Sequence record: PQ014731.1
Strand: one strand, 5' to 3'
Source: Escherichia phage VB-EcoM-WM
DNA: 64,000 nucleotides
Of this stretch, positions 41,493 to 44,035 are shown in pieces (the stretch's first letter is position 1; each line of letters starts with the position of its first letter). The notes under the pieces were generated by a model. The model was not told the DNA's origin. It saw only the letters and a list, made by a program, of their open reading frames with translations, and did no database searches. A program made the translations under genes and the position numbers.

Positions 41493-44035
41493 TGCTCTTT
41501 TTCCTACCATAAACGGCCCTACCTGGCAAGTGTAATAATTGACGAGCCATTAATCCCGCACACTGTACAAATATACATGTAAAATAGCTATTGCATAACC
41601 TTTCATTGTGTGGTAGCGGTGCTATTTTTACCCGTTTTCTCTCCCAAAATTGCACGTAATGCAGCTATTGCACAAAATTTAACCTGATGCACATTTTCAG
41701 TATACTGTCAACAATTAAAAACCCTTATAAATCATACACTTACACAAACCAAAAAGCGTGCCCTACGTGAAAAATCGGGTGCAACTATAGCCGACAGATC
41801 TCAGAATCCACGTACGATCACCATTCTATAGCCTGCTAAGTATTTATTCCAACCATAGAATAACGGAATAGTCAATACCTGTACAAAATAATTATTCGTA
41901 TAAACTGCATAACATAAATTTTCTCATGTGTCAACATTTTTCGTAAACAGTCCGAAATTGTCACGATAGGTTACTATAATCAGAGAAATCTTTAGTCGTC
42001 TAATGTTTACTGCACATAACTATACTGACTGGAATCATTAGATGACTAATAGAAAGATAAGAAATAGTTAATAATGTAATTGTTTTACCTGTAACAATAA
42101 GGCAACTATGCAAACGAATGTCATGGCGCGACGGAGTCGCGACATAATATAAAAGCAGTAACAATCACCCCCGTGATAGTTTGTCTGCAATCTATTATTC
42201 AGATCATAGTTGCCTTGTATTTAGTTAATCATGACATAATAAGCAAGGCAACTATAGATCTGCTAATAGTTGCCCTGCTTTTATATTATGTCATAGAAAC
42301 GCCCGAAGGGGTGACCTGGTCACCTGGCATAGCCAGCGAAATATTATTACCTTGCTAATAGTTATCATGCAAACGAATGGCATGGCTGATTATTGGTGTT
42401 GTGATTATTAGTGTAGTAATGATTTGTCTGAAGAGTGTTTCATAGTCAATGGTTAGTTAACTAATTAGTTGTGAGTGAATGGTGCCAGTGTAAACAGTTC
42501 CATATGTTATTACCGTGTCAAAAGTGTCATATTGTGTGACATTGTGTCAGACAAGTTTTTCTCCTCTTTGTCAAGTGCTGCATGGAAAATTTACAATCTG
42601 GTATGGTAGTATTTTTTCGGCCCCGTTTACATTCAGGAGTGTATGTATAATCCTTATGGTGTGGGCGTTTAGACGTCTGGACGGTCAGAAGTCCGCAGGT
42701 TAATAACTAATCTATTGGTTGCTAACTATATCCCCCACAAATAATAAGAAATACAATTGTTATATGCGTAAACAGTAACCCATGTTATCAATCCATGTAT
42801 GTATCGCCAGTGGTGCGCATAATGGGTATTATGTTAAATTGCCCGTAATGATAACGATTCTCACAATGATAAGTATTCTCATTCATCCACACAAAATAGC
42901 TTGCAAATGTTGCGCCACTGTGTGAACGGCCTCGCCTATTAATTTGCCTCACTGCCTTGATATTTGAGAATTGTTATAAGAATGAGAAGTATTCCCATTC
43001 CGTCCGCCTGGCAGCGCTCCTGTAGGTCAGGTCAAAATCGTGGCAGAACTGGACCCCCTTCAGATATTTCTGGCTGACTCTTCAGGTCTGTGTGGGAAAA
43101 GCCAACCTCTCCGGCGGGGCAGGGGGTCTGCATGGCAGATTTCACCTGGAGCGAAACCTCTAAGGGCAGGATTGTGGTCTGCAGGAAAATTGCAGGTCAA
43201 TTAAAAAATTTAGGCGGTGTATGAAGCGCTCTTCAGGCAAGGTGTGGATTATGGGATGAAACCCTCTTCAGGTGATGATATTTGTGGGTGTGATATTTGC
43301 TGGAAAGCCAGATATGACGGGACTCCCGGCGGGGATGGGGTAGTACAGACAGGGAAAATGTGGGGATGTGGTGGGAGTAAATTGATCAGGCAGGTAGGAT
43401 ATGGAATATGTTACAAGTATGTTAAATATAAAGGTAGGATATTTGTAAGATTTGTGTGTAAAATCAAAGACTTAAGTAGTGTTGTGGTATTTTCTATAAA
43501 TAATTCAAGTTTAATAGGTGATATTTGTCTCTATCCACTTTGTGTGGTAACCATATTCTAATTGAATTGGTTTACAAGTGTATATAAAGTATACAAATTA
43601 AAGATACAAGAAACCCCCCTCCCCCTTCGGCTACCATTCACCTTTTCCTCTGACTGGTACTTAAACACTTATTCAGACTCTTCAGGTTATCACCCATATA
43701 CCCTATGGCAGTGACTGGTGTCCTCCGGCCCCTCTTTCGTCACCCGTCCGCTTCGCCATGCTAATGCCATAGCTAACTGTTCGGTTGTTCACCCTGTTCA
43801 CTCAGGTGTATCTCCATACCCTTCAAACCGAAGAGAACAGAAAACCCGAATTACTCGGTAAAAGAAAAGAGAAGAACTTAATTTTATCAGGATAGGCAAG
43901 AATGTCAAGGCATGACTGCTCACTAAACAAGCAAACAGTCATGTGTGGGAGGTAAGTGATTGTGGTGGTAGGAAATTTAGTTGAAAGATGTGTTATAGGC
44001 GCTTCCAGCACTTTAGCCGGGCAGCTAATTGTGTG
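41493..44035. other. about 2.5 kb repeat-rich noncoding region between convergent gene blocks
   Basis: No convincing ORF; 18-bp perfect inverted repeat GACATAATATAAAAGCAG (42143..42160) / CTGCTTTTATATTATGTC (42275..42292); ATGCAAACGAATG(T/G)CATGGC twice; CTCTTCAGG four times (43077..43697); GATATTTG runs. Confidence 0.6.

Follow-up and report, generated by a model that had tools for sequence, protein, structure and literature searches.

The gene-free gap between convergent gene blocks of a Vequintavirus as its probable genome terminus and packaging region

Introduction

The subject of this study is positions 41493-44035 of a 64-kb window of DNA (the whole stretch analysed, 64,000 nucleotides of Escherichia phage VB-EcoM-WM, sequence record PQ014731.1), a gap of about 2.5 kb that most depositors of related genomes have left unannotated. 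Comparison with related phages indicates that this gap is very probably the genome-terminus and packaging region of a Vequintavirus, organized around a 459-bp direct terminal repeat (DTR). The roles of its sub-elements, including which protein binds what and the existence and function of an RNA, are ones that we infer. The stretch matched 121 phage records at 90-96% identity, all of them Vequintavirus (rV5-like myoviruses of Escherichia coli), and the window is from such a phage. Two gene blocks converge on the gap, as a first-pass annotation of this DNA had observed: the plus-strand block of small genes stops at 41451, and the last gene of the minus-strand block stops at 44036. Large-scale GC skew switches sign at the gap, tracking the direction of transcription. 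The authors of the rV5 paper (2013) reported that changes of genome skew coincide with changes of transcription direction, and their Figure 2 draws the homologous stretch as a grey "non-coding" box with no open reading frames (ORFs).

Among the candidate roles that had been offered for the gap, that of a packaging or terminal-repeat boundary proves correct, and it is established for this genus: a 459-bp DTR in a convergent noncoding gap has been published for close relatives. The published notes on vequintaviruses give the length and location of the repeat only, and do not describe the conserved islands, the word array, or the promoter reported below. As far as the searched literature shows, four elements are undescribed: a phased TGTCA array, an invariant palindrome, cut-site words conserved across genera, and a promoter-driven invariant unit.

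The direct terminal repeat and its cut sites

The features that define the termini are as follows.
42550-43008, no strand: 459-bp DTR, which homology with mapped termini places at both physical ends of the virion DNA
43009-43019, no strand: conserved 11 bp outside the right end of the DTR, followed by an indel hotspot at 43019/43020

Several database records start or stop inside the gap. The Gotham record annotates a 459-bp repeat at both ends, with termini taken from virion sequencing reads, and this repeat aligns with window positions 43008 to 42550 over 459 of 459 nucleotides, ungapped, at 93.7% identity. In HdK5, whose termini likewise come from virion sequencing reads, the first 459 nt are the same as the last 459 nt and the ends of the record map to 43008 and 42550, so that both repeats correspond base for base to 42550-43008; the bov22_2 record begins at the base equivalent to 43008. 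A separate laboratory has reported terminal redundancies of 458 bp for EdH4 and HdK5, the published terminal repeat of LL12 agrees with the DTR of the window, and fixed read starts and approximately twofold coverage of the repeat in virion-DNA sequencing have been reported for Gotham, LL12, and the Klebsiella phage KPP-1. From these homologous mapped termini, 42550-43008 is assigned as the 459-bp DTR. The Gotham and HdK5 repeats map without gaps, and by these homologies the virion DNA of this phage is expected to start at 42550, pass around the genome, and stop at 43008, with 42550-43008 at both ends; the window represents the DTR in single copy, as in a concatemer.

Conservation was counted in an alignment of the window with 16 Vequintavirus relatives, and all counts out of 17 below refer to these genomes. 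The left junction word, TGTCA|GACAAGT, and the right junction word, GTCCGCC|TGGCAGC, are invariant in the 17 genomes, and neither is found a second time in the window. Variability shifts sharply at both mapped ends; at 42550 precisely, nucleotide diversity goes down from 0.28 to 0.03. Immediately outside the conserved 11 bp on the right, inserts of 24-50 bp are present at 43019/43020 in eight genomes, and phage I29 has at the same position a 594-bp tandem duplication of the right-flank block that starts CTGTAGGTCAGGTCAAAATCG; the aligned sequences thus show this junction, just outside the DTR, as a hotspot for duplication and indels. A plus-strand promoter inside the DTR (42568-42597) was considered and rejected, as the critical last T of its -10 hexamer is G in eight of the 17 genomes.

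KPP-1 belongs to the sister genus Mydovirus and has a published 514-bp DTR, identified from coverage and PhageTerm, with T7-type packaging. This DTR sits in a gene-poor gap of about 1.8 kb between convergent blocks of small ORFs, at a locus that is inverted relative to the window according to the match of a flanking protein. Overall alignment of the KPP-1 and window gaps was not possible; 60-nt windows centred on the mapped ends, however, align in register at both ends. One cut-site pair is GCGCTGCCA|GGCGGAC versus GCGGTGCTA|GACGGAC (shuffle p = 0.02) and the other is CTTGACAAAGAG-GAGAA versus CTTGACAAGGAGAGAGAA (shuffle p = 0.0005), while four control pairings of the end sequences gave nothing. 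The candidate cross-genus cut-site words are GYTGCYA|GRCGGAC and CTTGACAARGAG. This match in register argues for sequence-specific recognition of both ends and is independent support for the boundaries. An nhmmer profile of the DTR gave a weak hit in the KPP-1 gap (E = 0.009), and nhmmer profiles of both flanks and of the two conserved islands described below found nothing there.

Taken as a mechanism, these boundaries would mean that 42550-43008 is present once between successive genomes in concatemers, that terminase would cut sequence-specifically at 42549|42550 and 43008|43009, and that the segment would be duplicated to supply both ends of virion DNA. Packaging would then be of the T7 type, non-permuted and with a short direct terminal repeat, and the approximately 1 kb of gene-free DNA on each side would hold cis-acting signals and not genes.

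Conservation and noncoding status of the gap

The percentage of variable columns differs widely along the alignment of the 17 genomes.
Third codon positions of coding sequences (CDS): 45%
First and second codon positions of CDS: 9%
Left flank, 41493-42091: 32%
Island A, 42092-42292: 8.5%
42293-42544: 87%
DTR, 42550-43008: 26%
43009-43599: 45%
Island B, 43600-43874: 7.3%

This landscape, with its shifts at the mapped ends, supports the DTR boundaries. Two islands, one on each side of the DTR, are about as constrained as first and second codon positions. That the gap hides unannotated small genes is most improbable. Some depositors do call short ORFs here (in HMD-6, Murica, I29, and NHEP1), and the minus-strand ORF at 42000-42164 is open in 17/17 genomes, but its start codon is not conserved (TTG has become TGG in 14/17) and its variable sites at the three codon positions number 4/13/6. 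Nearly all other ORFs of the gap are broken in most of the genomes. The ORF at 43217-43561, which had been expected to lack homologs, is intact in one of 17, that is, in the window only, and has no PHROG hits and no Pfam match near threshold. No third-position bias was found in gap ORFs (4/13/6, 16/16/15, and 9/12/15 variable sites), whereas three flanking genes taken as a control gave 9/2/31, 10/4/46, and 9/6/33; in island B the count is 11/13/12, flat in every frame. The gap thus lacks the pattern of protein-coding genes, a conserved open frame with excess third-position variation. A PHROG search of the gap had no hits, and a Pfam search gave two sub-threshold matches only (E 0.0067 and 0.25). 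Rfam 15 at gathering score had no matches in the window, a permissive Rfam scan of the gap gave chance-level hits only (E <= 5), none of them in island B, and ARAGORN found no tRNA or tmRNA in the window. The gap is real and truly noncoding, as had been proposed from the absence of convincing genes.

Conserved elements to the left of the repeat

Between the plus-strand gene block and the left cut, the following features were distinguished.
41464-41482, plus strand: intrinsic terminator closing the plus-strand gene block, an 8-bp GC-rich stem followed by a T-run
41493-42091, no strand: left flank, weakly constrained noncoding DNA with no conserved ORF
42092-42292, no strand: conserved island A
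42141-42292, no strand: 152-nt palindrome (hairpin or cruciform), its outer stem a perfect 18-bp inverted repeat
42293-42549, no strand: variable-length array of helically phased TGTCA words ending at the left DTR cut
42367-42386, plus strand: second copy of a 20-mer, ATGCAAACGAATGGCATGGC, a nearly invariant islet within hypervariable DNA

The array is the element closest to the cut. Its segment varies among genomes from 178 to 330 bp, and its words are of the (A/G)TGTCA type: 13 distinct 130-nt arrays hold 44 TGTCA compared with 1.6 expected. Of 31 spacings between TGTCA words, 17 measure 9-11 bp, and the greater part of the remainder lie close to 19, 29, or 38 bp. In the window the words are at 42517, 42526, and 42545, and the last TGTCA abuts the left cut in every genome. 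If a packaging protein docked next to its cleavage site, its array could be expected to show just such words, phased along a single helix face, and the TGTCA array up to the cut would most likely serve in this way, for example for the small terminase subunit.

The palindrome lies 258 bp further out, within island A. An inverted repeat of 18 bp with arms at 42143-42160 and 42275-42292, separated by about 115 bp, had been noted before; the perfect repeat and its right arm are real, but the left arm is at 42141-42158, and 116 nt lie between the arms by count. Both arms are invariant in 17/17 genomes. The fold has z scores of -9.1 as DNA, -8.1 as plus-strand RNA, and -8.3 as minus-strand RNA, with none of 200 shuffles equal to it. 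Variable sites fall on 7 of 28 unpaired and 9 of 124 paired positions and are therefore 3.5 times denser where unpaired, and the only large indel, a 33-nt insertion in rV5 and A135, is at the apex. The similar strength of the fold on both strands and as DNA favours a role at the level of DNA. Its most likely function would be as a hairpin for end processing or repeat duplication, as a transcription barrier, or both. The Murica record labels the inner hairpin (42241-42280) and its T-run a terminator, and from its sequence this hairpin could terminate plus-strand transcription.

Island A has further repeated words. Four invariant ATAGTTGCC words on alternating strands are at 42101, 42206, 42247, and 42266 (4 compared with 0.55 expected), and a GC hairpin is at 42127-42141. 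The 20-mer ATGCAAACGAATG(T/G)CATGGC (ATGCAAACGAATGKCATGGC), a duplication that the first-pass annotation had correctly picked out, has one copy in the island (42108-42127) and the other in the islet at 42367-42386, 2 compared with 0.01 expected.

Another explanation takes the gap to be mainly a transcription buffer, in which the palindrome and terminators serve only to stop convergent units from colliding and the rest is junk tolerated at genome ends. The gene blocks do converge here, and the strong plus-strand terminator at 41464-41482 is kept in relatives and annotated as such in Murica, Gotham, and HdK5. The terminator annotated within the palindrome fits the same idea, as does the near-neutral left flank, with 32% variable columns compared with 45% at third codon positions. 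However, junk leaves unexplained a pair of islands whose constraint equals that of codon positions 1 and 2, and a buffer does not explain the invariant motif copies, the phased array ending at the cut, or the conservation of cut-site words across genera; the palindrome also has no U-run on the minus strand. A gap that is mainly a buffer is accordingly judged improbable.

Promoter, invariant unit, and G-rich block to the right of the repeat

The right side of the gap has a different composition, with the following features.
43020-43374, plus strand: G-rich repeat block, with CTCTTCAGG at 43078, 43229, and 43264 and GATATTTG at 43277 and 43292
43375-43599, no strand: AT-rich trough, 26-27% GC, moderately conserved, where GC skew changes sign
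43600-43874, minus strand: candidate noncoding transcript of about 275 nt (island B), ending in G5AG6 and then TTTCTT
43881-43908, minus strand: predicted sigma-70-type promoter, TTGACA at 43908-43903, a 16-nt spacer, and a TG-extended TAAAAT ending at 43881

The promoter matches 11 of 12 consensus positions, the best sigma-70 match in the region. Its hexamers are invariant in 17/17 genomes and its spacer varies in sequence and in length (16-18 nt), so that by sequence it is predicted to be a sigma-70 promoter. Invariance resumes at the predicted start, near 43874, and runs for about 275 nt to the G5AG6+TTTCTT tract, which occurs only once in the window. Island B is at least 97% identical in 118 database records, compared with 90-95% in most records for an adjacent CDS of equal length. 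By its sequence pattern, the combination of promoter and invariant unit is the signature of a transcribed noncoding unit, and a host-type promoter would here transcribe an invariant noncoding RNA of about 275 nt towards the repeat. A cluster of noncoding RNAs, which had also been suggested for the gap, is unsupported as a cluster; there is one good candidate RNA, on the minus strand at 43600-43874, behind the conserved promoter. Scans of IMG/VR and of metagenomes with the invariant words gave just two and five near-identical copies.

The end of island B in G5AG6 beside the AT-rich trough makes it a candidate small RNA or primer RNA, and both possibilities have been stated as explanations in their own right. 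As a free-standing gene for a regulatory small RNA (about 275 nt, minus strand), island B would have its targets among the mRNAs or proteins of host or phage and would take no part in packaging or replication. The conserved sigma-70 promoter, the constraint on the transcribed part (at least that of codon positions 1 and 2), the identity across the 118 records, and the absence of a coding signature are all in keeping with such a gene, and its few variable columns fall in predicted loops. It has no canonical terminator at its 3' end, however, and a weak terminator-like hairpin follows the predicted start by only about 20 nt; the fold is no better than that of shuffled sequence, covariation is absent, no Rfam family matches, and no vequintavirus RNA sequencing was found in the literature, where a search for vequintavirus transcriptomes returned none. 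A regulatory small RNA of this kind is possible, with the odds against it. The weak hairpin itself (43858-43846, minus strand), CCGAGTAATTCGG followed by GTTTTCTGTT, could be an attenuator or the 5' hairpin of the RNA.

The second possibility is that the right flank is a transcription-primed replication origin, modelled on T4 oriF/oriG, ColE1, and mitochondrial CSB II, in which a G-rich RNA would stall or end at G5AG6, form an R-loop at 43375-43599, and prime the leading strand. This is compatible with a terminus in the gap. Invariant hexamers around a variable spacer, with invariance beginning at the predicted transcription start, speak for such an origin. The RNA strand is strongly G-rich (skew of -0.45 on the plus strand) and is followed by the trough and the flip in skew, and the G5AG6+TTTCTT tract stands at the end of the invariant block, as the G-tract of CSB II terminates transcription to make primers. 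The length of the G-tract is polymorphic among the 17 genomes, though, and the element is absent from the sister genus although replication genes are common to the subfamily; the rV5 authors ascribed skew changes to the direction of transcription, and about 275 nt of invariant sequence exceeds what a primer needs. The arrangement expected of an R-loop origin, a promoter and then an A+T-rich unwinding element, is present in composition only. The origin is considered unlikely, and slightly more doubtful still is the specific proposal that an RNA of about 275 nt (43874 to 43600, minus strand) ends at the CSB II-like G5AG6, forms an R-loop at the trough, and primes a transcription-dependent origin. 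If that proposal were true, initiation of replication would be physically linked to the packaging site.

The G-rich block next to the DTR has a GC skew of +0.25 to +0.58 and contains repeat families D3, D9, and D11; it is tandemly duplicated as a whole in phage I29. Over 43150-43550 the skew reaches +0.66, and then flips to -0.45 at the trough. The four CTCTTCAGG copies counted earlier in the region are all present (43078, 43229, 43264, and 43678), with a fifth just outside at 44324. The window has seven of these words compared with 0.56 expected; five cluster within 43078-44332, all on the plus strand, and each copy in the block is retained in 15-16 of the 17 genomes. The description of a G/T-rich segment with GATATTTG runs holds for the skew and for the clustering of copies, all of which fall within 42959-43527, but the word is not enriched across the window (five compared with 3.2 expected). 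Three GATATTTG copies, including both in the block, are invariant. A 68-bp segment of the window (43127-43194) is present at full length in just one other of the 17 genomes. Words resembling DnaA boxes at 43243 and 43531 were identified by eye only, are not conserved, and were rejected.

Evidence weighed against a terminus with fixed ends

Several observations count against the gap as a genome terminus with the elements described. The termini of the window are assigned by homology, at 91-94% identity, to the mapped ends of relatives. The rV5 authors refer to genomes of this group as circularly permuted, and one 2026 paper on another vequintavirus reports a PhageTerm call of "headful, partially permuted." No counterpart of island A, island B, or the TGTCA array was detectable in KPP-1, and whatever these elements do is therefore not shared by the whole subfamily. 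Compensatory double changes in the palindrome were absent among the 17 genomes. The fold of island B has a z score of -1.2, no better than shuffles, and none of 88 pairs showed covariation, because eight relatives are essentially identical and leave no informative pair.

Words resembling the Fur box

The DTR contains words similar to the binding site of Fur.
42847-42882, plus strand: two tandem Fur-box-like 18-mers, AATGATAA-NN-ATTCTCAY, with a third copy at 42981-42998

The window has six matches to the 18-mer compared with 0.12 expected. Across the 17 genomes the DTR copies have constant half-sites around a variable centre of 2-3 nt; they are annotated as "repeat_region" in navn and pangalan, and similar words are present in the terminal gap of KPP-1. 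The 19-bp consensus of the E. coli Fur box, GATAATGATAATCATTATC, agrees with the DTR copies at approximately 12-14 of 16 aligned positions, and is fitted much better by the copies at 32631-32648 and 32767-32784.

Those closer matches belong to another regulatory region of the window without genes (32325-32995), which has low GC, a dip in skew, and a position upstream of a gene starting at about 32996. Near-perfect Fur boxes there are GAATGATAATCATTCTC at 32629-32645 and GATAATGATAATCGTTCTC at 32764-32782, and GTACTCGATCTGTTTTTC recurs in the region alongside two CTGGCGGGGCC words. This may be a phage promoter region that responds to iron or is complex in some other way.

Neighbouring genes and related records

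At 41457/41458, next to the gap, 12 of the 17 genomes have an inserted cassette of about 570 bp (positions 3121-3618 in rV5) that comprises rV5 ORF164 (139 aa) and P164, a sigma-70 promoter annotated for this gene alone. The cassette is absent from the window, HMD-6, Gotham, pangalan, and one IMG/VR contig, and ORF164 is an accessory gene adjoining the terminus gap. The Murica record notes a "Rel homology domain" for the ORF164 protein. The last gene of the plus-strand block (41188-41451, 87 aa) is named "DNA translocase FtsK" in navn, pangalan, and APECc02 and hypothetical in others; given the small size of the protein, the name looks like annotation carry-over.

On the other side, the minus-strand gene at 45577-45882 encodes a 101-aa protein, named "transcriptional regulator" by some depositors. 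Of 222 matching records, 114 have it at 99% identity or more, and in Mydovirus, Seunavirus, Certrevirus, and Aeromonas phages it is conserved with 42-58% identity. Its gene is among the few small early-region genes common to the whole subfamily. A synteny walk from this gene to the other genera failed, as the downstream gene order differs in Mydovirus, Seunavirus, and Certrevirus. A distant-mode blastn search of the gap returned Vequintavirus records only, and a comparison with 5,426 E. coli genomes, made as a check for host mimicry, gave no match. A C-rich tract of the KPP-1 gap resembles island B, but when both loci are set in the same orientation it falls on the other strand, and the likeness was treated as chance.

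About 19 GenBank records (MG0656xx) are named "Campylobacter phage" but are 90-95% identical to E. coli vequintaviruses in this stretch. They are marked UNVERIFIED and are unannotated, and are probably contaminant or mislabelled coliphage genomes.

Comparison with known systems

The closest comparisons are within the genus. The corresponding regions of LL12, Gotham, EdH4/HdK5, and the rV5 box are homologous at 91-96% and have the same 459-bp repeat, the same boundaries, and the same position between convergent blocks. Nothing essential differs between the window and other Vequintavirus DTR regions; the window is without the ORF164 cassette and has the 68-bp segment.

Outside the genus, the T7-type concatemer junction offers a parallel. 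Both have a short, exact, non-permuted repeat with unique conserved sequences at the two cuts, a large hairpin-forming palindrome a few hundred base pairs outside the repeat, and a promoter pointing towards the repeat. The vequintavirus, in contrast, is a myovirus of about 137 kb with unrelated sequence, a repeat of 459 bp and not 160 bp, and about 1 kb of gene-free DNA on both sides, and its two neighbouring gene blocks are transcribed towards the ends and not inwards. Unlike in T7, no phage RNA polymerase promoter is known in the gap. The candidate array can be compared with lambda cosB, whose R sites are a recognition array for the small terminase subunit, and with pacL and pacR of SPP1, which are another. 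Like these, the candidate array consists of several short, co-oriented words at intervals of roughly one helical turn, right next to the cleavage site; unusually for a recognition site, however, it differs in length and sequence even between closely related phages. For T7, concatemer processing has been reported to require duplication of the terminal repeat, with a hairpin-containing intermediate observed, and this is the nearest precedent for the palindrome.

For the right flank, the published comparisons are T4 oriF/oriG, with a promoter, an A+T-rich unwinding element, and a persistent RNA-DNA hybrid, and mitochondrial CSB II, where a G-tract terminates transcription and so makes primers. 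The gap resembles these in having a predicted promoter, a candidate G-rich transcript, a G-tract (G5AG6, compared with the G-rich CSB II), and an A+T-rich segment. It differs from T4 in that about 275 nt separate the promoter from the AT-rich segment, while minimal T4 origins are about 100 bp, and from mitochondria in that the host RNA polymerase would act here and not a single-subunit enzyme.

Significance

Vequintaviruses are widely used in cocktails for phage therapy and biocontrol and in model collections, yet most of the approximately 120 public genomes have been deposited as if circularly permuted and opened at arbitrary points. Ends at 42550 and 43008, together with cut-site words that hold in the sister genus, would provide a simple standard by which these genomes can be oriented and annotated, and fixed ends would also aid the design of engineered or rebooted genomes. 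The phased array, the palindrome, the conserved 9-mers, and the promoter-driven unit are handles on how a large myovirus with a short repeat recognises, cuts, and duplicates its ends, and the same four elements of the gap may also reveal where replication starts in vequintaviruses.

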